Translations under genes and position numbers: made by a program
Notes under the pieces: generated by a model
Seen by the model: the letters and a program-made list of their open reading frames with translations, nothing else
What the model was told of the DNA's origin: nothing
The model's database searches: none
NCBI GenBank assembly: GCA_013334765.1
Contig: JAAXWW010000001.1
Span: 108,589 to 172,588, forward strand
Length of the DNA: 64,000 bases
Source: Candidatus Moraniibacteriota bacterium
Lineage (GTDB): Bacteria; Patescibacteriota; Minisyncoccia; Moranbacterales; UBA2206
Reading direction: 5' to 3'
Shown here: one piece after another, positions 6,682 through 16,926 of the stretch
Layout of the letters: every line of letters starts with the position of its first letter
Numbering within the stretch: the stretch's first letter is position 1

Positions 6682-7449
6682 TTGGATATGGGAAAGCTGC
6701 TGATAGGGAATTTGAAAATGAATATTCTGAGCTCATATGAGAGGGACAGGTATTTTTCCGATTTCAATCTTGAAATGAAAAAATATGATTTTCCAGGATC
6801 ATCCCTGGTATTGTGCCCGCCATCCCTGCACATCGAGGCTTTCAGGAATAATTTCGGCGAGACTCTTTCTGTCGGTGCTCAGAACGTCTTTTGGGAGGAC
6901 AAAGGGTCGTATACGGGTGAGATATCGCCCAAGATGCTCAAGAACTTCGGCGTGGAATACGTGATTGTCGGACACAGTGAAAGGCGGAAATTCCTTGGCG
7001 AAAACGGGAGGATAATAAACGCTAAGGTCACAGCTTCTTTGAAGGCCAATTTGAAACCTGTTCTTTGTATCGGAGAAACGAGGCAGGAGAAGGATGCGAA
7101 TCAGATCGTGAAGGTGCTGACTCTTCAGATCAGGGAAGCTCTTCACGGCGTGTCCAAGCTGCGTGCCGGAAGCATTATCATCGCCTATGAGCCGATCTGG
7201 TCGGTTGGGACGGACAAGATTCCCAGTTCCAATGAGATCATGGAAGCCAAGGTGATAATTCGGAAGATCATATTTTCCATGTTCGACAGGAATATCGCCG
7301 AGAGCATCCCGGTTATTTATGGCGGCAGCGTCAGCTCGTTCACTGCCAAGCAGGTATGTGTCGACAGCGCCATGGACGGCGCGCTGGTCGGAAGGGAGAG
7401 TCTCATCCCGAAGGAATTCTTGAAGATAGCAGGCGTTATCGGTTGTTAG
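6682..7449 (+). CDS. tpiA: Triosephosphate isomerase
   Basis: 'GNLKMN', 'VGHSERR', 'AYEPIWSVGT', 'YGGSV' motifs. Confidence 0.9.
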   Translation: MDMGKLLIGNLKMNILSSYERDRYFSDFNLEMKKYDFPGSSLVLCPPSLHIEAFRNNFGETLSVGAQNVFWEDKGSYTGEISPKMLKNFGVEYVIVGHSERRKFLGENGRIINAKVTASLKANLKPVLCIGETRQEKDANQIVKVLTLQIREALHGVSKLRAGSIIIAYEPIWSVGTDKIPSSNEIMEAKVIIRKIIFSMFDRNIAESIPVIYGGSVSSFTAKQVCVDSAMDGALVGRESLIPKEFLKIAGVIGC

Positions 7450-7473
7450 CATAATTCTAAAAAATAAAATCAT

Positions 7474-8343
7474 ATGATTACAAGCGTAAAAGAGATTCTT
7501 GCGAAAGCTAAGGAAGGCGGATACGCGGTCGGCGCTTTCAATACGATAAACTTGGAAACGACTCGGGCAATCGTCGATGCGGCACAGGAGCTGAGGTCGC
7601 CGGTTATTATCCAGGTTACGGAGAAAACCATGGAATACGCGGGGGGCAGGATGATATTCAATATCATCAAGAATGAAGTGGAATTCTATGCTCCTGAGGT
7701 TCCGGTAGGGATCCATCTCGATCACGGGAAAAGTTTTGAAATAATAGAACGCGCGGTGGAAATCGGTTTCACTTCGGTCATGTATGACGGATCGAGAAAG
7801 AAATTCGCCGATAATCTCGATATCACTAAAAAAGTAGTCGCTCTTTGCAAAGAGAAAGGGGTGGATGTGCAGGGGGAACTGGGTAGCGTTCCGTATCTTG
7901 GAGAAGCCGGGACGGGTGAGATCAACTGGGATGAATATATGACCGATCCTGGACAGGCCGCGACGTTCGTTCGCGAATCAGGCATTGACGCTTTGGCTGT
8001 GGCGATCGGGAACGCGCATGGGTTCTTCAAAGAGCGGGAGGTGCCTGATTATGACAGGCTTGAGATGGTAAACAAATCCTGTGATAACATGCCGTTGGTC
8101 CTTCATGGCGCTTCCGATTGGGAGGATGGGAAAGTCAAAGAAGTCATAAGCCGCGGGATATGCTGCTTCAATGTCGACACGGCGATCCGGTTGGCTTTCA
8201 TAAATAGTGTTATAAATTCCACCAAGAACCAAGGGAGGAGCATTTCTTTCGATGTGCGTAATCTTCTAGGAGAGGCAAGGGAGGCGGTCAAGGACGTGGT
8301 AAAGCAGAAGATGATACTTTTCGGTTCTGACGGAAAGATATAG
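7474..8343 (+). CDS. fba: Class II fructose-bisphosphate aldolase
   Basis: 'GYAVGAFN', 'PVIIQ', 'HLDHG' class II aldolase motifs. Confidence 0.85.
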   Translation: MITSVKEILAKAKEGGYAVGAFNTINLETTRAIVDAAQELRSPVIIQVTEKTMEYAGGRMIFNIIKNEVEFYAPEVPVGIHLDHGKSFEIIERAVEIGFTSVMYDGSRKKFADNLDITKKVVALCKEKGVDVQGELGSVPYLGEAGTGEINWDEYMTDPGQAATFVRESGIDALAVAIGNAHGFFKEREVPDYDRLEMVNKSCDNMPLVLHGASDWEDGKVKEVISRGICCFNVDTAIRLAFINSVINSTKNQGRSISFDVRNLLGEAREAVKDVVKQKMILFGSDGKI

Positions 8344-8385
8344 CCAATTCCAGGCAATAATAAAAGTGAAGTGAGATATTGAACA

Positions 8386-8835
8386 ATGAAGCCTGTTACG
8401 GTTGAAAAAATCCTTTTGGAATTCGATCCCGAGCAAGGGAATATTTTGCCGGTACTGAAAAGAATCAATGCCGCTTTTGGATATGTTTCCGAAACGGACG
8501 CTAAGAAGATGGCGGATTATTTCTCAGTTTCCCTGTCTCATATTTTCGAGTTGGCGAGTTTTTACAGCCTTATCGGGACTAAAAAGGATTCGGATATCGT
8601 TATCAAGATATGTTCCGGAACTAATTGTACGGTTCAGGGCAGTTCTTGCCTTATAGCTGAAGTTGAAAAATATTTCGGAATAAAAGCAGGCGATGAGTTC
8701 AATCCCAAAGTCAGGTTGGAAGTGATCAGCTGTCTTGGGAGATGCGGCGAAGGGCCGATCATGATGGTGAATGGCAGGATATACACGAAAGTGACAGTTT
8801 CAGGCGCCCGGGATATCTTGGAAAATATGGAGTAA
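8386..8835 (+). CDS. NuoE/HoxE-like [2Fe-2S] thioredoxin-like subunit (24 kDa family)
   Basis: Four-Cys pattern 'CSGTNC...CLGRCGEGP' typical of NuoE/HoxE/HydC. Confidence 0.8.
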   Translation: MKPVTVEKILLEFDPEQGNILPVLKRINAAFGYVSETDAKKMADYFSVSLSHIFELASFYSLIGTKKDSDIVIKICSGTNCTVQGSSCLIAEVEKYFGIKAGDEFNPKVRLEVISCLGRCGEGPIMMVNGRIYTKVTVSGARDILENME

Positions 8836-8857
8836 ACGGAATGCTTCCGAATATCAT

Positions 8858-10087
8858 ATGGATAATATAAAAATAATAACCGAGCATTGGGACAAGATCG
8901 ATCCGAAGAAGATCGCGGATTATGTCGCTGTCGGAGGATACGAAACGCTTAGGAAATTCGTTTGCGAGGCGGATCCGGCTTCAGCCTTGCAAGAGATAAA
9001 GAAGTCCGGTCTTCTGGGGCGGGGCGGGGCTGGTTTCCCGATCGGCGACAAGCTCGAGCTGGTGGCTTCCAGCAATAAAAAAGAAAAGTATTTCATTTGC
9101 AACCTGGATGAATCAGAGCCAGGGACATATAAGGACAGGGAAATCGCCAAGAACAACCCGCATCTTCTCATTGAGGGAATAGCTTTGGCGTCGCTTATTA
9201 TTGGGGCGAAAAAGGCATTCATTTATCTCAATGGGAATTATGAAGAAGAAGAGGAGATTCTGGAATGTGCTCTTTCTCAGTCTATTGAGAACGGCTTCAT
9301 TGGTGAAGGAATACTCGGATCGGAATACGGGCTTGAGATGGAAGTGTTCCAAGGGGCTGGCGCGTATATTTGCGGAGAGGAAACGGCGCTTCTCAATTCG
9401 ATCGAAGGCCGTCGCGGCGAACCGAGGCTGCGTCCGCCGTATCCGACGGACAAAGGGCTTTGGGGCCATCCGACGGCTATTGGGAATGCCGAGACCGTTT
9501 CGAATTTTCCTTGGATAATCAAGAACGGAGGGGCGGAATATTCCAGGATCGGTTCGGCTGATTCTCCAGGCACGAAGCTGTATACTTTGGGCGGATCCGT
9601 GAAAAATACGGGAATATTCGAGCTGCCGACCGGAATCAGCATTCGCGATCTTATCCAGAAATCGGGTGGCGGGATGATGCTGGGGAAGGAATTCTGGTTT
9701 GCGCAGATAGGCGGAGCGTCCGGAAGGTTGGTGTTGGAAAACGAGTTGGAAGAGAAGCTGGTTCTGAAAAAGGGCGCCAAGATACCGCTGGGTTCCGGAG
9801 CGGTTCTGGTGGTTGATAAGACGGTGGATATCCATGATATGATTTTGTCCTGGACTGGATTTTTCAGGCGAGAATCTTGCGGGAAATGCGTTCCGTGCCG
9901 GGAGGGGACATTCCGCCTTTTTGAAATAGCGAAGAGGATGAATAATGGGAAGATGAGCGAACGGGATAAGGCGGCTGTTTCCGATATCCTTTGGGCGCTT
10001 GAGAACACGACTTTCTGCCCGTTCGGGAAATTTTCTGCCACTGCTTTCCGGGATACAGTGGAGAAGTTGAACATATCGAATTCGTAA
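8858..10087 (+). CDS. NuoF/HoxF-like NAD(P)H-binding FMN/[4Fe-4S] diaphorase subunit (51 kDa family)
   Basis: 'GRGGAGFP' FMN site, NADH-binding Gly-rich segment, 'CGKCVPCREG' 4Fe-4S motif. Confidence 0.85.
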   Translation: MDNIKIITEHWDKIDPKKIADYVAVGGYETLRKFVCEADPASALQEIKKSGLLGRGGAGFPIGDKLELVASSNKKEKYFICNLDESEPGTYKDREIAKNNPHLLIEGIALASLIIGAKKAFIYLNGNYEEEEEILECALSQSIENGFIGEGILGSEYGLEMEVFQGAGAYICGEETALLNSIEGRRGEPRLRPPYPTDKGLWGHPTAIGNAETVSNFPWIIKNGGAEYSRIGSADSPGTKLYTLGGSVKNTGIFELPTGISIRDLIQKSGGGMMLGKEFWFAQIGGASGRLVLENELEEKLVLKKGAKIPLGSGAVLVVDKTVDIHDMILSWTGFFRRESCGKCVPCREGTFRLFEIAKRMNNGKMSERDKAAVSDILWALENTTFCPFGKFSATAFRDTVEKLNISNS

Positions 10088-10263
10088 TAATCATCATGGT
10101 TTTCGGGATTTATACATCCTCATAGGAATTACTATTGCGACATGGATGGGTGTAAGTTTAGTTTTCGGATTTTCATAAGACGGATATCTTTTATAATAAT
10201 GGGCATGAGTAATTTATTTCTGAATGCTCACTCCCTCAGCGCAGTAATTGGTTGGTATAAATT

Positions 10264-11658
10264 ATGAAAATAAAAATAAACAACGTTGAATATAGCGCCA
10301 AAATCGGAGAAACGATTCTGGATGTCTGCAAAAGGGAGAGAATAAGGATCCCAACCCTGTGCGCGTATAAGAACCTGAATCGTGAGGCGGTTTGCCGGAT
10401 GTGTTTGGTTGAGGTGAATAAGAGCGATAGCCTGGTCACGTCCTGCTCGTTCAAGGTCTGCGGCGGTTTGGAGGTGACAACTGAAAGCGAGAGGATTCAG
10501 AAGGCTCGCAAGGTCAGTTTGGAGCTTCTTTTCGCGGATCACGCGGGGAAGTGCGTAAAATGCAGGAAAAATAGGCGCTGCGAACTTCAGAACTTGGCCG
10601 AGGAGAACAAGATAGATAATTTCCATTTTGTTCCAAAGAAAGATGAGATCGGTTCTGCTGACGAGCTTGATCTGCTCAAGGACAACAGATCGCGCCTGGT
10701 TTTTGAGGATAATAACAGGGTAATCACGAGGACGACGGAATATTGCATTTCGTGCAGAAGGTGCGTAAACGTTTGCCCGACTCAGGAATTCGGCCTTAGC
10801 CGTCGCGCGGCGGATACGGTTGTCGGAACTCCGTATGGCAAGGAACTGGATTGCATATTCTGCGGCGCATGCGTCAGGGCTTGTCCGACAGGCGCGCTTA
10901 CGGATCATGGCGATATTGTGAAAGCGCAGGACGAACTGGATAACCTCAACAAGCTCGCGGTGGCGATCGTGGACGAGACTGTTCTGAGAAATATCGCGGA
11001 TGAGATCGGAGGATTGCCGGCTGGGGATGTGAGCGGGGAAGTCATCGGGTATTTGCACGAGCTCGGATTTGAAAAAGTCTTCAGTCTTTCTTTCGGTCTC
11101 GGAAAATGGATCGAATCCGCCAAGGAAAAGATGGAAAACAGAAAAAGGCCGATTATCAGCGATTATTGCCCGTCGGTTGCCATATATGTGAAAAAATATT
11201 TCCCGTCTCTCGCGGATAATCTGCTGGGTGTGCCTACGCCGGATGATATCATGGCAAGATATATCAAGAATGAATATGCGGATAAGGAAAAGATAGATGC
11301 GGATAATATCGTGGTTATTTCAATCTCAGGGTGCCTTGCGAAGAGGAAAACCAAAGGAAGATATCTGGATCATGTCATGAGCCCGAGCCAGATCGGGCGG
11401 ATGGTCCGCGTGAAAAAGATAGGCAAGGTTGAGAAGGGTAAGTTTGATCATCTTGCAAAAGAAGATATGCATCCGGATGCGTATAGTATGAACAGGAAAG
11501 GCGGAGTGGCGAACGCTCTTTCTAGCGGGATATCCGACGCCAGGGCAGCAAGCGGAATCAAGGATATAAAGAGGATTCTTGAGGATATGGACAGAGGAAA
11601 TGCCGAATATGATTTCGCCGATCTCATGGTTTGCGATGGGGGATGTGAAAATAAATAG
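10264..11658 (+). CDS. HoxU/NuoG-N-terminal-like Fe-S subunit fused to a C-terminal domain with degenerate [FeFe]-hydrogenase H-cluster motifs
   Basis: 2Fe-2S Cys pattern (C33,C44,C47,C61); His-ligated cluster 'HAGKCVKCRKNRRC'; two CxxCxxCxxxCP motifs; C-terminal C302 (SDYCPSV), C357-K360 (SGCLAK), C457/C461 (MVCDGGC) with spacings 55/100/4. Confidence 0.7.
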   Translation: MKIKINNVEYSAKIGETILDVCKRERIRIPTLCAYKNLNREAVCRMCLVEVNKSDSLVTSCSFKVCGGLEVTTESERIQKARKVSLELLFADHAGKCVKCRKNRRCELQNLAEENKIDNFHFVPKKDEIGSADELDLLKDNRSRLVFEDNNRVITRTTEYCISCRRCVNVCPTQEFGLSRRAADTVVGTPYGKELDCIFCGACVRACPTGALTDHGDIVKAQDELDNLNKLAVAIVDETVLRNIADEIGGLPAGDVSGEVIGYLHELGFEKVFSLSFGLGKWIESAKEKMENRKRPIISDYCPSVAIYVKKYFPSLADNLLGVPTPDDIMARYIKNEYADKEKIDADNIVVISISGCLAKRKTKGRYLDHVMSPSQIGRMVRVKKIGKVEKGKFDHLAKEDMHPDAYSMNRKGGVANALSSGISDARAASGIKDIKRILEDMDRGNAEYDFADLMVCDGGCENK

Positions 11659-11672
11659 TAAATAACGAAAAT

Positions 11673-11888
11673 ATGTGTCTGACTATACCTAAGAAAGTGG
11701 TTGAGATAGACGGCAACAAAATCGTGGTCGAGCTTGCCAATGGCGATAGACAAAGCGTGAAAAGTATCGTAGCATTGGAAATAGGTGATTTTTGCTTAAC
11801 GCAGCAGAACGTTGCCATAGAGAGGATAGACGCCGACTATGCTGGCGAGCTCATTGAAATACTGAAAGGAGGAAAAGCCAATGTCTGA
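11673..11888 (+). CDS. hypC: Hydrogenase maturation factor HypC
   Basis: Starts 'MCLTIPKKVVEI', the HypC N-terminal Cys2 signature; 71 aa. Confidence 0.8.
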   Translation: MCLTIPKKVVEIDGNKIVVELANGDRQSVKSIVALEIGDFCLTQQNVAIERIDADYAGELIEILKGGKANV

Positions 11889-12600
11889 AATCATCATAAC
11901 TCCGGACGGCTTGCGCCTCCTGGGTCTTGTTTTGGTAACTTGCCCGTCGGAAACCACCAATGGAGGGGTTCTTGGCAAACAGCACGCCTTGGAATTGGCA
12001 AGAGACGAAAAAAGCGTGGGTTTTGAAGAATTCATGCACTATCTGGGATTGAGAAATCCCGGTCCGAGCGTTTTTTCCCATATCCACAAAGTGGCTGTTG
12101 GAAAAGGCGCGGCTTCGATCGATGCTGCCTTTGTGGCTGGATATTTCGGCGGCAAGCCGCATATCGAAAGAGTTGTCGCTGGAACTAGTAAAGAAACACT
12201 CTGCGGACTGTTTGGAGATAATGGATATTATTTCAAATCAATCGTTTCGCACGTCCTGCTGCCAGCTCGCGTCAGCAATGTCCGCTTGGATGATGTCAAA
12301 GGAAAGAAAGCGCATGTCGTTGATGCCATTTATGAAAATGGGGATATGAATCTTTCCTTCTCCAACCTTATTATGCTCCCAAGAGAACCGGTCGAAAAAG
12401 GCCAGTTTGTCCTGTGCCATCACTCATCCGTTCTTCCGGGAATAGTTTCTGAAGATATGAAAAAGCTGCTTCTTGAAGCGCAGTTGGATAGTAGCGCATT
12501 CATGGAAGCATGCCGCAAGATTGATCAAGACGGCATCAACCATTGTTCGATGCTGAGTTTACCTGCTGCAAGAGCAGCGCTGGATTACGATTGTTCCTAA
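11881..12600 (+). CDS. Hypothetical protein embedded in the hydrogenase cluster
   Basis: 239-aa ORF overlapping the hypC stop by 8 nt (translational coupling); no recognised motif; terminator directly after it. Confidence 0.5.
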   Translation: MSEIIITPDGLRLLGLVLVTCPSETTNGGVLGKQHALELARDEKSVGFEEFMHYLGLRNPGPSVFSHIHKVAVGKGAASIDAAFVAGYFGGKPHIERVVAGTSKETLCGLFGDNGYYFKSIVSHVLLPARVSNVRLDDVKGKKAHVVDAIYENGDMNLSFSNLIMLPREPVEKGQFVLCHHSSVLPGIVSEDMKKLLLEAQLDSSAFMEACRKIDQDGINHCSMLSLPAARAALDYDCS

Positions 12601-12643
12601 GCGGAGCATGAACCATCAGGTTTCATCGCTCCGCTTTTTTTAT
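12601..12643 (+). terminator. Rho-independent terminator
   Basis: gcggagc...gctccgc stem followed by TTTTTTT. Confidence 0.6.
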
Positions 12644-12672
12644 TCCTGCGAATTTATGGTAAAATATAAGGC

Positions 12673-13803
12673 ATGAAACACAAAAATATTTCAAATATAA
12701 AAACCGGTGCCAAGAAGAGGGTCCTTCGCAAAAAAATTGCGGAGCGGACAAAAAAGAAGGTCGCAAGAAAACCGGCAAAAAGGAAACATCTGGATATCGG
12801 ATCACTAACAGGAAAAAAATCACTGTTCGATCATATCAAGGGAAGCCTTGTGGCTTTTTCGAAAAAGAAAGAAGGCAAGAGTATCCCAGAAGAAGGGAGG
12901 ATAATTTCCATGAACGAACCGGTGAAGGAAATCGAAATCCCGATTGTTTTGAAAGAAGCAAGAAAGAATCCTGCAAAAAAAGCTCCTGCGAAAAAAAGGA
13001 AGAAGGCTGTTGCTGAGGAAACCGGGCTTATGAATCTTCCTAAGCCCCGCGTTGCGATCGTGAGCCTCACTTCGTGCGAAGGCTGCCAGTTCGTCCTTTT
13101 GGATCTCGGGGAAAGGTTTTTCGAGTTCGTGAAGAGCGTTGAACTGGTTGATTTCCGCATGGTCGAGGATCAGGAAGATGACAACCTGCAGCTCGATCTG
13201 GTGCTGGTGGAAGGCAATCCTGTTACTGAGGAGAATGTGGAAACTCTCAAAAGAGTGCGGGCTAGGGCCAAAGTCCTAGCGGCTCTTGGAAACTGTGCGG
13301 CGATGGGCGGAGTGCCAGAGATCAAGAACTATCAGAAAGGGAAGAGCACCATAAAGCACGTATACAAGTATATTCACGGCATAAGCAATCCTGAGATCAA
13401 GGAAATAGATAATTTCGTGAAAGTTGATTTCGTTTTCCCGGGGTGTCCGATTGACGGAGAAGAGTTCCTGAAATATATGCCAGAGCTTCTCAAGGGAAAT
13501 GTTCCGCAGATTCCGGATCAGGCGGTCTGTCTTGAGTGTAGGAAGAAAGGAAACAAATGCCTTCTTTTGGAGAAGAAGCCGTGCTTCGGTCCGATGATCC
13601 TGGGCGGATGCGATGCGGTCTGTCCTACGGCTAGGATGGGCTGTCAGGGTTGCCGCGGGCTGCGCCCGGAAGGCAGCATCAAAGTGATGCGTGCGACATT
13701 GAAAAGCATGATGACTGATGAAGAATTCGAGAATGTGACGGAAATATACGGCCTCAGGGATGATTTGGAAGAGAAAGAGAAAAAAGAGAAAAAGGAGAAG
13801 TAG
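12673..13803 (+). CDS. [NiFe]-hydrogenase small subunit (group 3-like) with a Cys-rich C-terminal extension; true start uncertain (alternatives 12910 or 13030)
   Basis: 'VAIVSLTSCEGCQ' proximal-cluster motif and 'CLECRKKGNKC...CFGP...GGCDAVCP...CQGCRG' extra Fe-S cysteines. The N-terminal ~119 aa are Lys/Ala-rich; a strong RBS gaagggagg precedes the ATG at 12910. Confidence 0.7.
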   Translation: MKHKNISNIKTGAKKRVLRKKIAERTKKKVARKPAKRKHLDIGSLTGKKSLFDHIKGSLVAFSKKKEGKSIPEEGRIISMNEPVKEIEIPIVLKEARKNPAKKAPAKKRKKAVAEETGLMNLPKPRVAIVSLTSCEGCQFVLLDLGERFFEFVKSVELVDFRMVEDQEDDNLQLDLVLVEGNPVTEENVETLKRVRARAKVLAALGNCAAMGGVPEIKNYQKGKSTIKHVYKYIHGISNPEIKEIDNFVKVDFVFPGCPIDGEEFLKYMPELLKGNVPQIPDQAVCLECRKKGNKCLLLEKKPCFGPMILGGCDAVCPTARMGCQGCRGLRPEGSIKVMRATLKSMMTDEEFENVTEIYGLRDDLEEKEKKEKKEK

Positions 13804-14266
13804 TCTCTACGAATTACGAATCTTACGAAATTACGAACAGCAGATGAAAACAAATAAAGATATCATATATGCCGATGAATCTTATGAGATTATTGGGATG
13901 ATGTATGAGGTTCATGACAAGATAGGATCTGGACACAAAGAAGTTTTCTATCAAAAAGCTGTAGCGGAAATTTTCAGGAAGAATGGCAAAAATTTCAAAG
14001 AGCAGCTAAGATTGAAGGTGAAGATGGGTGGCAAGGAAGTGGGAGAATATGTTCTGGATTTTTTGTATGAGGATATTATTGTCATAGAATTGAAGCAGGG
14101 TGAAGTTTTTTCAAAGAGCAATATAAATCAAATATATGTTTACCTGAAAGCGACCGGATTGAAACTTGGCTTGTTGATAAATTTTACAAGAAACGGAGTC
14201 AAATTCAAAAGAATCGTCAATATAGCATAAATTCGTAATTTCGTATAATTCGTATTTCGTAGAGAA
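13804..14266 (+). mobile_element. GxxExxY-gene cassette bounded by 'TACGAAT'-rich inverted repeats (copy E1)
   Basis: Left arm tctctacgaattacgaatcttacgaaattacgaac (13804-13838) and right arm attcgtaatttcgtataattcgtatttcgtagagaa (14231-14266) are reverse complements; inserted between the hydrogenase small and large subunit genes. Confidence 0.55.
13844..14230 (+). CDS. GxxExxY protein (PD-(D/E)XK nuclease superfamily)
   Basis: 'SYEIIGMMYEVHDKIGSGHKEVFYQKAV' (GxxExxY core) and 'ELKQGE' motif; start chosen at the internal Met 'MKTNKDIIY'. Confidence 0.75.
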   Translation: MKTNKDIIYADESYEIIGMMYEVHDKIGSGHKEVFYQKAVAEIFRKNGKNFKEQLRLKVKMGGKEVGEYVLDFLYEDIIVIELKQGEVFSKSNINQIYVYLKATGLKLGLLINFTRNGVKFKRIVNIA

Positions 14267-14269
14267 TTC

Positions 14270-15529
14270 ATGGAGATAAAAATAAACCACATTGCTAAGA
14301 TGGAAGGGCACACTGGCTTCATGGCGAGTGTGATTCATGGCGATGTGAAAGCTGCGAAACTGGAAGTCAAAGAGGGGATCCGTCTTATCGAGGGCGTGCT
14401 CATAGGCCGTGATTATCGGGATATGCCGGTGGTAGCGCAAAGGATCTGCGGGATCTGCCCGGTGGTGCACAACATCACTTCGATAAAAGCCATAGAGAAT
14501 GCGATGGGGGTTTCAGTCACGCCAGAGACGAAAAAGCTCAGGACGCTCATGGAATACGCCCAGATCATTCATTCTCATGCACTGCATCTTTTCTTTTTGT
14601 CCTTGGCTGATTTTTTGGATATGGATAATGACATCAAGCTCATGCAGGATTATCCTGAGGAAGCAAGGATGGCAATCAAAATACGCGAATACGGGATGTC
14701 GATTGTCAAAGTGATCGGAGGAAGGGTCGTGCATCCGCTCACTAATGAAGTCGGAGGATTCAAGAAGGCGCCGGATACTGAAGAACTCAAGAGGCTGCTT
14801 GATGAATCAGGGGAGGTGCTTAAAACGGCTCTGGAACTGGGAGAGTTTTTCAAGACGATCAAGGCCCCTGACTTTTCGCGCGAGACGGAATACGTATCTC
14901 TCGGCAAGAAAGGCGAATATGCCATATATGACGGCGATGTCATTTCTAATTTCGGGCTGCATATCCTGACGGAGAAATTCGAGAACAACTTCCTGGAGCT
15001 CCAGAAACAGAATGAGATCATAAAAAGGGTCGAGCATAGAGGAAAAAGCTATATGGTCGGAGCGATTGCCAGGTTGAACAATTCCAGGGAAAAACTCAGA
15101 CCGAAGGCGGCAAAATACCTGGAAAGTCTCGGCTGGAGCTTTCCGGACTATAATCCCTTCCACAACATCCTCGCTCAGATGACGGAACTTATCCACTTCA
15201 TTGAAGAATCTGCCAGGCTTCTTTCAGAGCTGCTCAATTGCGATCTGAATGAAGTCATAACCAAGGAATATGAAATCAAGGAAGGATCGGGTTCCGCGGC
15301 AGTGGAAGCTCCGCGCGGGACTCTCTACTACCATGTCGATATCGATCCGAAAGGATATATCAGGAACGTGAATATCATAACGCCGACGGCTCAATTCCTG
15401 TCGAACCTGGAAGATGACGTAGCGGCATATATCCCTGAAATAATAAACCTGGACCCGAAAGAAAGGGAGAAGAAGCTCCGCGCGTTCATCCGTGCCTATG
15501 ATCCGTGCATATCCTGCGCGGTTCACTAG
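14270..15529 (+). CDS. [NiFe]-hydrogenase large subunit (group 3-like), no C-terminal propeptide
   Basis: N-terminal 'RICGICPVVH' (RxCGxCxxxH) and C-terminal 'DPCISCAVH' immediately followed by the stop codon. Confidence 0.85.
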   Translation: MEIKINHIAKMEGHTGFMASVIHGDVKAAKLEVKEGIRLIEGVLIGRDYRDMPVVAQRICGICPVVHNITSIKAIENAMGVSVTPETKKLRTLMEYAQIIHSHALHLFFLSLADFLDMDNDIKLMQDYPEEARMAIKIREYGMSIVKVIGGRVVHPLTNEVGGFKKAPDTEELKRLLDESGEVLKTALELGEFFKTIKAPDFSRETEYVSLGKKGEYAIYDGDVISNFGLHILTEKFENNFLELQKQNEIIKRVEHRGKSYMVGAIARLNNSREKLRPKAAKYLESLGWSFPDYNPFHNILAQMTELIHFIEESARLLSELLNCDLNEVITKEYEIKEGSGSAAVEAPRGTLYYHVDIDPKGYIRNVNIITPTAQFLSNLEDDVAAYIPEIINLDPKEREKKLRAFIRAYDPCISCAVH

Positions 15530-15544
15530 ATAAAGTAAAAAATT

Positions 15545-15587
15545 AAAGGTAAAAAGTAAAAAATATTTTACATCTACTTTTTACCTT
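15545..15587. promoter_or_regulatory. AT-rich perfect 14-bp inverted repeat (aaaggtaaaaagta / tactttttaccttt) between the large subunit and hypA-like genes
   Basis: Read directly; could be a weak intrinsic terminator or an operator. Confidence 0.3.
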
Positions 15588-15613
15588 TTACTTCTAACTT
15601 TTAACTTTGAAAC

Positions 15614-15892
15614 ATGCATGATTTTCTATTAGCCAAAGAGATAATCGACAAGCTTCGCGAGATTGCCCAAGAGAAAAAGATTTCGAAGATAACTAGGGTC
15701 AATCTTGAAATAGGCAACATATCGATGAGCCACGACGGGCATCCGGAACACTTGGAGGAAATCAATATTGAAAATCTCGAATTCGGGCTTGGCGGAATCG
15801 TGAAAGACGATCCGATGTTCCGGGATGTTAAATTCGGTATCAGGAAAACTCAGAGCGAAAGCTGGGGCATAACGGATATCGAGGCGGAATGA
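15614..15892 (+). CDS. HypA-like protein lacking the zinc-finger cysteines
   Basis: N-terminus 'MHDFLLAKEIIDKLRE...ITRVNLEIGNIS' parallels the HypA 'MHE(L/I)SL...' Ni-binding N-domain; 92 aa with no Cys at all. Confidence 0.45.
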   Translation: MHDFLLAKEIIDKLREIAQEKKISKITRVNLEIGNISMSHDGHPEHLEEINIENLEFGLGGIVKDDPMFRDVKFGIRKTQSESWGITDIEAE

Positions 15893-15930
15893 GCAATTAA
15901 TTTTGAGGATTAAAATTAAACAACAAACAT

Positions 15931-16926
15931 ATGACAAAAATCGCAATCAACGGGTTTGGGAGGATCGGACGTCCATCGTTCAAAATCGCTTTCGCAAACG
16001 ATGAATTGGAAGTAGTGGCGATCAATGATCTTACGGATCTCAAAACTGCAGCGCATCTCCTCAAGTATGATTCGTCCTATGGGCGATATGGCAAGGAAGT
16101 CCTCATTGATGAGGAAAACTCGGAGCTGATCGTAGACGGAACGCGCATCAAATATCTGAGCGAACCGGATCCATCCAAGCTTCCGTGGGACGAATTGGGA
16201 GTCGAAGTAGTTCTTGAATGCACGGGAATATTCAACGACAAGGAAAAGGCAGCGAAGCATATAGCAGCCGGAGCAAGGAAGGTCATCCTTTCAGCGCCTC
16301 CGAAAGGCGACGATGTTCCGGTCTATCTCATCGGAGTCAACGACCATGAATACGCTGGCGAAGACGTCGTTTCCAATGGTTCCTGCACCACCAACTGCCT
16401 GGCGCCGATGATCAAGGTCCTGGAGGACAATTTCGGAGTGGAAAAGGGGTTTATGACAACGACGCATTCATATACCAATGATCAGAGGCTCCAGGATCTC
16501 CCGCATAGCGATCTTCGCCGGGCAAGAGCCGCAGCTTTGAATATCATCCCGACAACGACTGGAGCTGCCAAGACTGTCGGAAAAGTGATGTCCAGTCTCA
16601 AGGGTCAATTGGATGGCATAGCGCTTCGCGTTCCGACGCCGACCGTTTCGATCGTCGATTTCATCTGTATATTGAAGAAAGAAGCGACAGTCGAGGAAAT
16701 AAACGAAGCCTTCCGTCAGGCGGCATCCAACGGATTGAGGAATATTCTCGGAACCACAGACGAAGGCCTGGTATCTATGGATTTCAAGGGAGAGAAGAAC
16801 AGCGCGGTTGTCGATTTGCCGCTCACGATGGCTAACGGAACGCTTGCTAAGGTTGTCGGATGGTACGATAATGAATGGGGATACTCGAACAGGATGGTCG
16901 AGATGGCTGTCATCGTGTCGAAATAA
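15931..16926 (+). CDS. gap: Glyceraldehyde-3-phosphate dehydrogenase
   Basis: 'INGFGRIGR' and 'SCTTNCLAP' active-site motifs. Confidence 0.9.
   Translation: MTKIAINGFGRIGRPSFKIAFANDELEVVAINDLTDLKTAAHLLKYDSSYGRYGKEVLIDEENSELIVDGTRIKYLSEPDPSKLPWDELGVEVVLECTGIFNDKEKAAKHIAAGARKVILSAPPKGDDVPVYLIGVNDHEYAGEDVVSNGSCTTNCLAPMIKVLEDNFGVEKGFMTTTHSYTNDQRLQDLPHSDLRRARAAALNIIPTTTGAAKTVGKVMSSLKGQLDGIALRVPTPTVSIVDFICILKKEATVEEINEAFRQAASNGLRNILGTTDEGLVSMDFKGEKNSAVVDLPLTMANGTLAKVVGWYDNEWGYSNRMVEMAVIVSK

Follow-up and report, generated by a model that had tools for sequence, protein, structure and literature searches.

In the HydABC [FeFe] hydrogenases, the catalytic subunit HydA (group A3/A6; PDB 8a6t, 7q4v and 7p5h) works with partners of the NuoE and NuoF type. 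In the NiFe-HydABCSL enzyme of Acetomicrobium mobile (Bfu family, PDB 7t2r), HydA is without an H-cluster, and a plain Fe-S cluster, A5, ends the A4 branch and feeds HydS (PMC8880783). Archaeal hybrids of group F/G [FeFe] and group 3f/3g [NiFe] hydrogenases keep the H-cluster ligands in HydA, and of two HydA proteins matured artificially and tested, one showed clear activity; group F has a HyhS-HydA fusion and a separate NuoG-like HydD (PMC11216029). Here we analyzed a 64-kb stretch of DNA (the window) from Candidatus Moranbacteria, a member of the candidate phyla radiation (CPR), in which the open reading frame (ORF) at 10264-11658(+) encodes a HydA-derived protein of 464 aa that we call HydA'. 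The product is identical to an NCBI protein annotated only as '4Fe-4S binding protein', encoded on a contig of 306 kb in a metagenome-assembled genome (MAG). Moranbacteria 3b hydrogenases have been described as HyhBGSL-like, with no mention of a HydA'-type subunit (Valentin-Alvarado 2024), and our literature search, incomplete in its coverage, found no published description of a CPR NuoEF-HydA'-HyhSL arrangement.

Our analyses indicate that HydA' probably serves electron transfer within a five-subunit [NiFe] hydrogenase that is cytoplasmic, NAD(H)-linked and non-bifurcating, and that the H-domain of HydA' is kept for the cubane half of the H-cluster only. The N-terminal clusters that a preliminary description had placed in residues 1-210 are present, with ligands C33/44/47/61 for a [2Fe-2S], H93/C97/100/106 for a His-ligated [4Fe-4S], and C161/164/167/171 and C197/200/203/207 for ferredoxin-type [4Fe-4S] clusters, invariant across 115 homologues save C164 (at least 90%). 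The 250 residues that follow match Pfam Fe_hyd_lg_C (E 8.9e-32, profile positions 5-241 of 245), and this H-like domain alone matched T. kivui HydA at 1e-22 in phmmer. Its homology to the H-domain is far beyond chance.

Three motifs in this domain, found at the coordinates first reported for them, fall on the H-cluster ligand positions of the Clostridium pasteurianum enzyme CpI (numbering after 1feh/3c8y/4xdc). HMMER alignments give the equivalences C302=C300, S355=M353, C357=C355, K360=K358, M455=M497, C457=C499 and C461=C503, and agree with the earlier reading that the proton-relay Cys is replaced by Tyr (Y301=C299) and the Glu of the third motif, L3, by Asp (D453=E495). The ligand spacings of 55, +3 and 4 are also the same in HydA' and CpI, while the distance from L2 to L3 is 100 against 144, because the 43 residues of CpI 435-477 are deleted. 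The four ligands are the sole Cys of the H-like domain. The stop codon lies three residues past the last of them (ENK), so that HydA' is without GGGQP and without the small-subunit-like (Fe_hyd_SSU) tail of about 70 residues.

The fold of the extension is likewise that of an [FeFe] H-domain, as had been proposed. An AlphaFold2 (AF2) model built on a 115-sequence alignment had a mean predicted local distance difference test score (pLDDT) of 90.1 and a predicted TM-score of 0.87, with pLDDT values of 93-98 over most of the H-like domain. In Foldseek the model matched HydA of T. kivui with a TM of 0.85 and CpI with a TM of 0.84. Matches to HoxU (5xf9_B, 204 residues) and to NiFe-HydA of A. mobile (7t2r_A, 249 residues) were confined to the N-terminal module. 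A NuoG-like C-terminal domain of the A. mobile type was rejected for HydA' on this ground.

HydA' shares with HydA the H-domain fold (Fe_hyd_lg_C) and the four Cys ligand positions of the cubane, [4Fe-4S]H. It does not appear to be a member of the catalytic [FeFe] hydrogenases, since signature motifs, cavity residues and curated cut-offs all fall short. Canonical HydA proteins have TSCCPxW as L1, MPCxxKxxE as L2 and ExMxCxxGCxxGGGQP as L3; the corresponding sequences of HydA' are SDYCPSV, SGCLAKRKT and DLMVCDGGCENK followed by the stop. Its best NCBIfam match, FeFe_hydrog_A6, scores 273.6 against a cut-off of 765, and the scores for HoxU (134.8, cut-off 333) and FeFe_hydrog_A (132.9, cut-off 405.95) are also too low.

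Conservation of the ligands was surveyed in a metagenomic set of 88 homologues (436-510 aa, all CPR wherever labelled) and in a scan of GTDB species representatives that gave 79 loci, nearly all from Moranbacteria or Parcubacteria, 21 of them of the 4-Cys type. C302, C357, C457 and C461 are conserved in 87, 87, 87 and 85 of the metagenomic homologues and in 21, 21, 21 and 20 of the GTDB 4-Cys genomes, so the survey proposed for these residues came out in favor of a retained site. Since the four Cys are about 99% conserved, the domain seems not to be an empty relic, one of the outcomes considered earlier. The K360 position is occupied by Lys in 74 and by Arg in 13 of the 88.

The surroundings of the di-iron subsite were assessed with the CpI cavity and CN-contact residues listed in PMC10147833. 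At the positions of CpI A230, P231, S232, I268, P324, Q325, P354 and K358, HydA' has D, E, T, L, P, D, G and K, and at the proton-pathway positions C299, E279, S319, E282 and R286 it has Y, S, L, E and K, sets that differ from those of HydA. Among the 88 homologues the C299 position is never Cys (H43/F21/Y15/N7), the Q325 position (residue 327) is Asp or Glu in 85 and the M353 position is Ser in 85, while the A230 position is Asp (D237) in all 88 and in all 21 GTDB 4-Cys sequences. Other changes in the 4-Cys family are S232 to Ala, A272 to Met, Leu or Phe, P354 to Ser, Pro or Ala, and S319 to Leu, Ser or Ala, with E279 variable. CPR full-length HydA proteins are canonical at all of the positions named here for the family (12/12 and 27/27). 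Asp at CpI 230 was found in 1/78 canonical and 1/20 Ser/Ala-type representatives, and it recurs where C299 is replaced by larger residues. Erosion has gone further in HydA' and its closest relatives than in the average family member, with Glu at P231, Asp for the Glu of L3, and no GGGQ. We suggest that D237 and D/E327 pair with K360 rather than facing CN ligands.

Rates of divergence agree with this erosion. Mean identity within the 4-Cys family is 43% for the H-like domain and 68.5% for the N-terminal module, a ratio of 0.63 as compared to 0.93 in canonical CPR HydA, which suggests that constraint on the H-like domain is relaxed; the domain also evolves much faster than HyhL, the [NiFe] large subunit (72-91% identity among relatives). 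In orthologues of 338 aa, all four ligand Cys are lost, and 11/16 have no Cys at all in the remnant of the domain. These Cys-less orthologues still carry D237, K360 and E327. Conservation of K360 was therefore not counted in support of CN binding; this Lys is retained where the Cys are gone, and its role is structural and not that of a CN-ligand contact.

The origin of the protein was examined with neighbor-joining trees on BLOSUM62 distances, one for the N-terminal module only and one for the whole protein, which are rough. In both, the 4-Cys and Cys-less forms are monophyletic, with the Cys-less forms nested inside the 4-Cys clade, and the approximately 110 Moranbacteria/Parcubacteria homologues of HydA' form the sister clade of canonical CPR NADH-type HydA. 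A CPR full-length HydA homologue (L005 in our own numbering of loci and proteins, 585 aa) scores 766.6 for FeFe_hydrog_A6, just above the cut-off, and 495 for FeFe_hydrog_A; it thereby passes as an NADH-dependent [FeFe] hydrogenase of group A6, and it lies in a TIM-FBA-nuoE-nuoF-hydA context (TIM, triosephosphate isomerase; FBA, fructose-bisphosphate aldolase) without [NiFe] genes. The preliminary description had taken the protein for a HoxU-like subunit with an appended domain. Given the scores for A6 and HoxU and the position in the trees, that order is best reversed: HydA' appears to be a reduced HydA and not an enlarged HoxU, and its H-domain to have been inherited and then eroded. The further proposal of an unusual Fe-S extension of HoxU survives in its first half, an extension with [4Fe-4S]H only being the favored form, while 'of HoxU' gives way to a HydA derivative over the whole length.

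Gene linkage ties this protein to a [NiFe] hydrogenase. The operon reads nuoE-like, nuoF-like, hydA', hypC, a 239-aa ORF, hyhS, a PDDEXK_3 insert, hyhL and a hypA-like gene (Table 1). The order nuoE-nuoF-hydA'-(hyp)-hyhS-hyhL was present in 6/6 metagenomic 4-Cys loci inspected singly, and locus L013 is a bare five-gene version, nuoE-nuoF-hydA'-hyhS-hyhL. In the GTDB set, counting the loci for which 7 kb or more could be read downstream, hyhS/L followed in 9/11 of the four-Cys type, 11/19 of the Cys-less type and 0/20 with full-length HydA, that is, in 20/30 versus 0/20 (Fisher's exact p = 7e-7). The loci inspected contained neither a HyhB/G-type partner for HyhSL nor a catalytic one for NuoEF-HydA', and each set thus appears incomplete alone.

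We propose the following model. The ancestor of HydA' would have been the catalytic subunit of an NADH-dependent HydABC [FeFe] hydrogenase of a group A6-like kind, and in the present enzyme it would join NuoE-like, NuoF-like, HyhS and HyhL subunits. Its H-domain still folds and supplies four Cys for the cubane half of the H-cluster. The di-iron cavity is remodelled, with a bulky residue at the proton-relay Cys position and an invariant Asp and a D/E facing the conserved Lys; the proton pathway is gone, along with the C-terminal tail and the 43-residue insert. The domain would most likely carry a plain [4Fe-4S] cluster, the functional equivalent of cluster A5 of A. mobile. Electrons would then pass from NADH to FMN (flavin mononucleotide), the NuoF [4Fe-4S], the F-clusters of HydA', the [4Fe-4S]H remnant, the three HyhS clusters and the Ni-Fe site to H2, and in reverse, with the eroded H-domain doubling as a docking surface for HyhSL. 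The analyses themselves show the homology, the fold, the conserved ligands, the eroded pocket, the linkage in the operon and the position in the trees; we infer the occupancy of the cluster, its place on the path, and the NADH specificity and direction of the enzyme. Since the operon sits between TIM/FBA and the gene for glyceraldehyde-3-phosphate dehydrogenase (GAPDH), the suggested role is re-oxidation of glycolytic NADH, with the electrons going to H2.

The most economical history would have three steps: a HydABC [FeFe] enzyme, then recruitment of a 3b-like HyhSL module and hyp genes with loss of the di-iron site, and then, in part of the lineages, a HoxU-sized protein left after the cubane and the bulk of the domain were lost. 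On this history, one kind of H2 catalyst seems to have taken the place of the other on a common scaffold. MAG JAUXSI01 contains both a canonical 584-aa HydA locus and a locus with 4-Cys HydA' and hyhS (L044, L045), and the idea of a strict replacement of HydA in situ was softened on that account.

In its proposed mode of action the enzyme resembles both Hox (group 3d) and NiFe-HydABCSL, but it falls outside the two families. CPR HydA and HydA' are sister clades that share the TIM-FBA-nuoE-nuoF-hydA context, the four H-cluster Cys and K358, and NuoE/NuoF partners are common to HydA' and the HydABC enzymes. Relative to HydABC HydA, HydA' has C299, M353, P354, A230, S232, Q325, S319 and E279 replaced, lacks CpI 435-477, GGGQP and the Fe_hyd_SSU tail, and has [NiFe] subunit genes and hyp genes alongside. 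The Hox enzymes (HoxEFUYH/HoxFUYH, group 3d, PDB 5xf9) resemble the locus in their HoxU-type cluster set, HoxE/F-like subunits and [NiFe] small and large subunit genes. HoxU, however, has about 235 aa and no H-domain, whereas HydA' has 464 aa with Fe_hyd_lg_C and is closer to HydA than to HoxU. HoxY carries only one cluster, unlike HyhS with three. HyhS and HyhL are nearest to the group 3b sulfhydrogenase delta and alpha subunits, these NCBIfam families being their best matches with scores far under the cut-offs (HyhL 238 against 880, HyhS 153 against 460). The operon has no HyhB or HyhG gene, and NuoE, NuoF and HydA' stand in their place.

The A. mobile enzyme is similar in operon composition, with HydABC homologues joined to [NiFe] small and large subunits. 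Its HydB has extra bifurcation clusters and its HydS one cluster, as against a minimal NuoF and three HyhS clusters here, and the C-terminal domain of its HydA does not match that of HydA', which is a true Fe_hyd_lg_C domain. Bifurcating BfuB/HydB subunits are marked by clusters B2-B5, from an N-terminal 2Fe-2S and a C-terminal 2x4Fe-4S domain (PMC9304861). The 409-aa NuoF has Complex1_51K, SLBB and NADH_4Fe-4S as its only Pfam domains and no additional Fe-S domains, so that B2-B5 are missing; an electron-bifurcating enzyme was rejected because this NuoF is of the minimal type without the extra BfuB clusters. The archaeal hybrids likewise have one gene cluster for a group 3 [NiFe] hydrogenase, NuoE/F-like subunits and an H-domain protein. 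The H-domain of HydA' differs in being bacterial (CPR), degenerate and unfused, with a complete F-cluster module in front of it. The locus falls outside archaeal groups F and G: hyhS is a separate gene, there is no NuoG-like extra subunit, and the pocket is degenerate.

That an H-domain can be maintained merely to carry Fe-S clusters has a precedent in Nar1/CIAO3, which retains a hydrogenase-like fold and its Fe-S sites and has no hydrogenase activity (PMC12621388). This eukaryotic cytosolic Fe-S assembly factor differs from HydA' in its N-terminus and in having no NuoEF or [NiFe] partners, and is probably of independent origin.

Several points weigh against a cubane-only H-domain on the path to HyhSL. 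The Cys-less orthologues presumably function in the same operon, so the cluster may not be essential for electron flow to HyhS. Most members of the 4-Cys family, though not HydA' itself, keep ExMxCPGGCxxGGGQ, which exceeds the strict need of two Cys ligands. M353S, S319L, R286K and the retained E282 are also found in TamHydS, a group D enzyme that has a normal H-cluster with C299A, M353S, M497L, E279F, S319L, R286K and E282 kept (PMC11803613); because TamHydS shares them, these changes in HydA' do not exclude an H-cluster. At L030 and L082, hydA' lies apart from hyhSL, though hypD and other hyp genes adjoin it. Since one MAG has both full-length and 4-Cys loci, duplication and divergence is a possible course instead of in-situ conversion. 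The physical complex of HydA' with HyhSL is a prediction, and so is the convergence of the four Sγ atoms on one site, which is read from homology and from the scores of the superpositions.

The main rival is that the four-Cys cluster is kept but lies off the main path, in a structural role like that of N7 in NuoG, the eroded H-domain being mainly a scaffold or docking surface. The last ferredoxin-type cluster would then pass electrons straight to HyhS, in the way that HoxU supplies HoxY. The Cys-less orthologues, which show the cluster to be dispensable, speak for it. It has to contend with Cys that are about 99% conserved in a domain only about 43% identical, and with the equivalent site in HydA and NiFe-HydABCSL (H-cluster or A5), which is the terminus of the A4 branch toward the catalytic module (PMC8880783). 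We consider it unlikely.

A second rival has the H-domain still binding a di-iron or related subsite, as a second catalytic or H2-sensing site, which would make the complex a [NiFe]+[FeFe] hybrid of bacteria comparable to the archaeal group F/G enzymes. K358 and the four H-cluster Cys are all retained, most relatives keep the L3 motif given above, the TamHydS-like changes are compatible with an H-cluster, and hybrid complexes exist in archaea (PMC11216029). Residue 301, however, is a bulky and non-conserved His, Phe, Tyr or Asn where H-cluster-binding sensory enzymes have Ala or Ser. The invariant Asp at A230 and the D/E at Q325 put negative charge at the would-be CN ligand sites, and pocket positions vary within the 4-Cys family. 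HydA' itself has Glu at P231 and no GGGQP, and scores far under the NCBIfam [FeFe] cut-offs; the Lys, the Asp and the Glu are still found in Cys-less orthologues, and the domain evolves much faster than HyhL. Genes for hydE/F/G were not found in the window or in the 10-kb flanks of the loci, to which the search was limited; the sole radical S-adenosylmethionine (SAM) protein of the window is MiaB-like, and a radical SAM gene near a full-length HydA locus encodes RlmN. We regard such binding as very improbable.

Two suggestions of the preliminary description are related to it. A combined [NiFe] and [FeFe] enzyme, of a kind known from archaea (PMC11216029), is highly unlikely here. A sensory or miniaturised H-domain is disfavored by the bulky, variable residue 301, the invariant Asp237, the D/E at 327 within the presumed di-iron cavity and the Cys-less orthologues of the same operon, and no PAS or regulatory context is present with HydA'. 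It is similarly hard to credit that the eroded domain binds a di-iron or other non-canonical cofactor in a two-catalyst or self-sensing hybrid made without known maturases, in which His/Tyr301 and Asp237 may be new second-sphere residues.

Least probable of all is a coincidental adjacency of HyhSL, as an independent hydrogenase, and NuoE-NuoF-HydA', as a separate oxidoreductase with another partner: an apparently non-CPR 4-Cys clade does pair NuoEF with a FAD_binding_2 flavoprotein and ferredoxin without [NiFe] genes, and hyp and other genes often intervene between hydA' and hyhS, but gene order is kept over about 50% sequence divergence, including the compact five-gene L013, the association with hyhSL depends strictly on the type of HydA (0/20 for full-length HydA), no other diaphorase genes lie near HyhSL, and hydA' stays beside hyp genes even after rearrangement. 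A [NiFe] hydrogenase subunit with a cubane-only H-domain thus remains our favored reading of HydA', and the features of its operon are collected in Table 1.

Table 1. Features of the hydA' operon and its flanks (positions in the window)
Feature	Coordinates	Strand	Details
TIM and class II FBA, upstream flank	6682-8343		
nuoE/hoxE/hydC-like, [2Fe-2S] thioredoxin-like	8386..8835	+	149 aa; Pfam 2Fe-2S_thioredx E 1e-30; C76x4C81 and C116x3C120
nuoF/hoxF/hydB-like FMN/NADH subunit	8858..10087	+	409 aa; NCBIfam nuoF_fam 419 bits; GRGGAGF and CGKCVPCR
HydA' N-terminal F-cluster module, residues 1-214	10264..10905	+	[2Fe-2S], His-ligated [4Fe-4S], 2x[4Fe-4S]
HydA' H-domain, apparently vestigial, residues 215-464 and TAG stop	10906..11658	+	Pfam Fe_hyd_lg_C
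Y301-C302 of L1 motif SDYCPSV	11164-11169	+	Y301 11164-11166; C302 11167-11169
C357-K360 of L2 motif SGCLAKRK	11332-11343	+	C357 11332-11334; K360 11341-11343
C457-C461 of L3 motif DLMVCDGGC (D453)	11632-11646	+	C457 11632-11634; C461 11644-11646
hypC, [NiFe] maturation chaperone	11673..11888	+	71 aa, start MCL...; NCBIfam hypC_hupF E 1.9e-8
Conserved 239-aa ORF, no assigned function	11881..12600	+	8-nt overlap with hypC stop
hyhS, [NiFe] small subunit, group 3b delta-like	12673..13803	+	Pfam Oxidored_q6; NCBIfam sulfhydrogenase delta E 1e-44
PDDEXK_3 (PD-(D/E)XK) gene	13760-14230	+	44-nt overlap with hyhS 3' end
hyhL, [NiFe] large catalytic subunit, 3b alpha-like, intact	14270..15529	+	419 aa; Pfam NiFeSe_Hases; NCBIfam sulfhydrogenase alpha E 2e-70
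Short hypA-like gene	15614..15892	+	92 aa; Pfam HypA E 4e-6, profile 1-39/112, under cut-off; NCBIfam HypA E 2e-5
GAPDH, downstream flank	15931-16926		

The 149-aa NuoE-like protein matches the NCBIfam NuoE/HoxE families under their cut-offs. The 12 Cys of HyhS are sufficient for three [4Fe-4S] clusters. As called, HyhS has a Lys-rich N-terminal extension of about 120 aa (12673-13030) that is probably disordered; its true start codon is uncertain, because similarity to relatives (70% identity) begins at residue 101. Long forms also occur in L001 (402 aa) and L013 (368 aa), and the proteins of L003 and L011 have 291-292 aa. The Ni-Fe ligand motifs of HyhL are intact (RICGICPVVH and, at the C-terminus, DPCISCAVH). 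The protein terminates at the His of DPCxxCxxH, and there is therefore no C-terminal extension for endopeptidase cleavage.

HypC occurs at the equivalent position in L001, L003, L011, L012 and the P0015 locus. The 239-aa ORF gave no match in Pfam or NCBIfam, a homologue search found only the protein itself, and its single-sequence AF2 model was unusable (pLDDT 40.6). Counterparts of 27-29% identity nevertheless stand behind hypC in L003, L004, L033 and L056, and an unannotated ORF of equal size occupies the position in L011 and the P0015 locus. The ORF is not present in L001, L012 and L013; since it is missing from several loci, it was dropped as a core hydrogenase subunit in favor of an accessory role, perhaps as a factor for [NiFe] maturation, or another accessory one, that is particular to certain lineages. 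Between hyhS and hyhL, the L003, L011 and P0015 loci have a PDDEXK_3 and/or a Peptidase_M10 gene, and the gap looks like an insertion hot spot within the hydrogenase operon. The hypA-like gene is kept in L003 (60% identity). Only the N-terminal approximately 40 residues of its product (MHD..., the Ni-binding part) match HypA. Full-length HypA carries a Cys-based Zn site, which this protein cannot hold because it has no Cys. No hypD/E/F was found in the window.

The sandwich of glycolytic genes (TIM, FBA / GAPDH) is conserved across dozens of Moranbacteria genomes. A promoter and terminator scan of 8200-16100 gave counts equal to those of shuffles, and a promoter-like site at 10170-10197 (10/12), in the nuoF-hydA' gap, is on that account not taken as evidence.

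Other relatives of the H-domain were noted in the course of these searches. Locus L070 has a 342-aa remnant with GAPDH about 1 kb downstream and no hyhS or hyhL between, and may be a complete loss of the hydrogenase. An apparently non-CPR clade of HydA-like proteins of the M3 type has 440-500 aa (P0124 at L007, 8001-9488; P0149, P0167, P0172, P0181, P0184, P0194 and P0253). Its members keep the four Cys, have CpI 435-477 shortened or mostly lost, and have lost C299 and K358; L007 combines the HydA-like protein with a FAD_binding_2 flavoprotein, ferredoxin, NuoE and NuoF, without [NiFe] genes. Cubane-only H-domains may have come into use for electron transfer more than once. The 582-aa protein P0240, a sister of CPR HydA, has TSWCPSW (C299 to Trp), DSSIK for APSVR and a retained tail; it may show H-cluster loss at an earlier stage, before any truncation. 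Outside the window, the representative library match P0121 is a protein of 4122 aa with six tandem, complete H-domains of 444 aa that are 94-100% identical, with the motifs TSCCASW / MPCTVKK / MMCEGGCMNGAGQP; the remaining 1400 aa or so are unrelated to them. Either the assembly is at fault, or this is a poly-hydrogenase of a eukaryote-like kind.

What is new here is an H-domain, vestigial and apparently cubane-only, inside what is probably a [NiFe] hydrogenase complex, together with a graded evolutionary series in one lineage and gene context, from HydABC through 4-Cys HydA' with [NiFe] to a Cys-less, HoxU-sized remnant of 338 aa with [NiFe]. The series is concrete evidence that two unrelated H2 catalysts are exchangeable on a shared NuoEF/HydA chassis. 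It suggests a route by which HoxU-like subunits could arise from HydA, and it complements the archaeal hybrids and A. mobile HydABCSL.

The finding also bears on annotation. Public labels of the family include 'Hydrogenase, Fe-only', 'HndD' and '[Fe-Fe] hydrogenase large subunit C-terminal domain-containing protein', and metagenomic surveys that rely on Fe_hyd_lg_C and CxxxC can miscount HydA' as a CPR [FeFe] hydrogenase where H2 is probably turned over by the [NiFe] enzyme encoded next to it. Asp at CpI 230, D/E at 325 and a bulky residue at 299 can serve as markers that tell cubane-only from sensory or catalytic H-domains. For the organisms themselves, the analysis assigns a diaphorase partner, and hence a probable coupling to NADH, to the widespread '3b-like' [NiFe] hydrogenase that Moranbacteria carry among their glycolytic genes.

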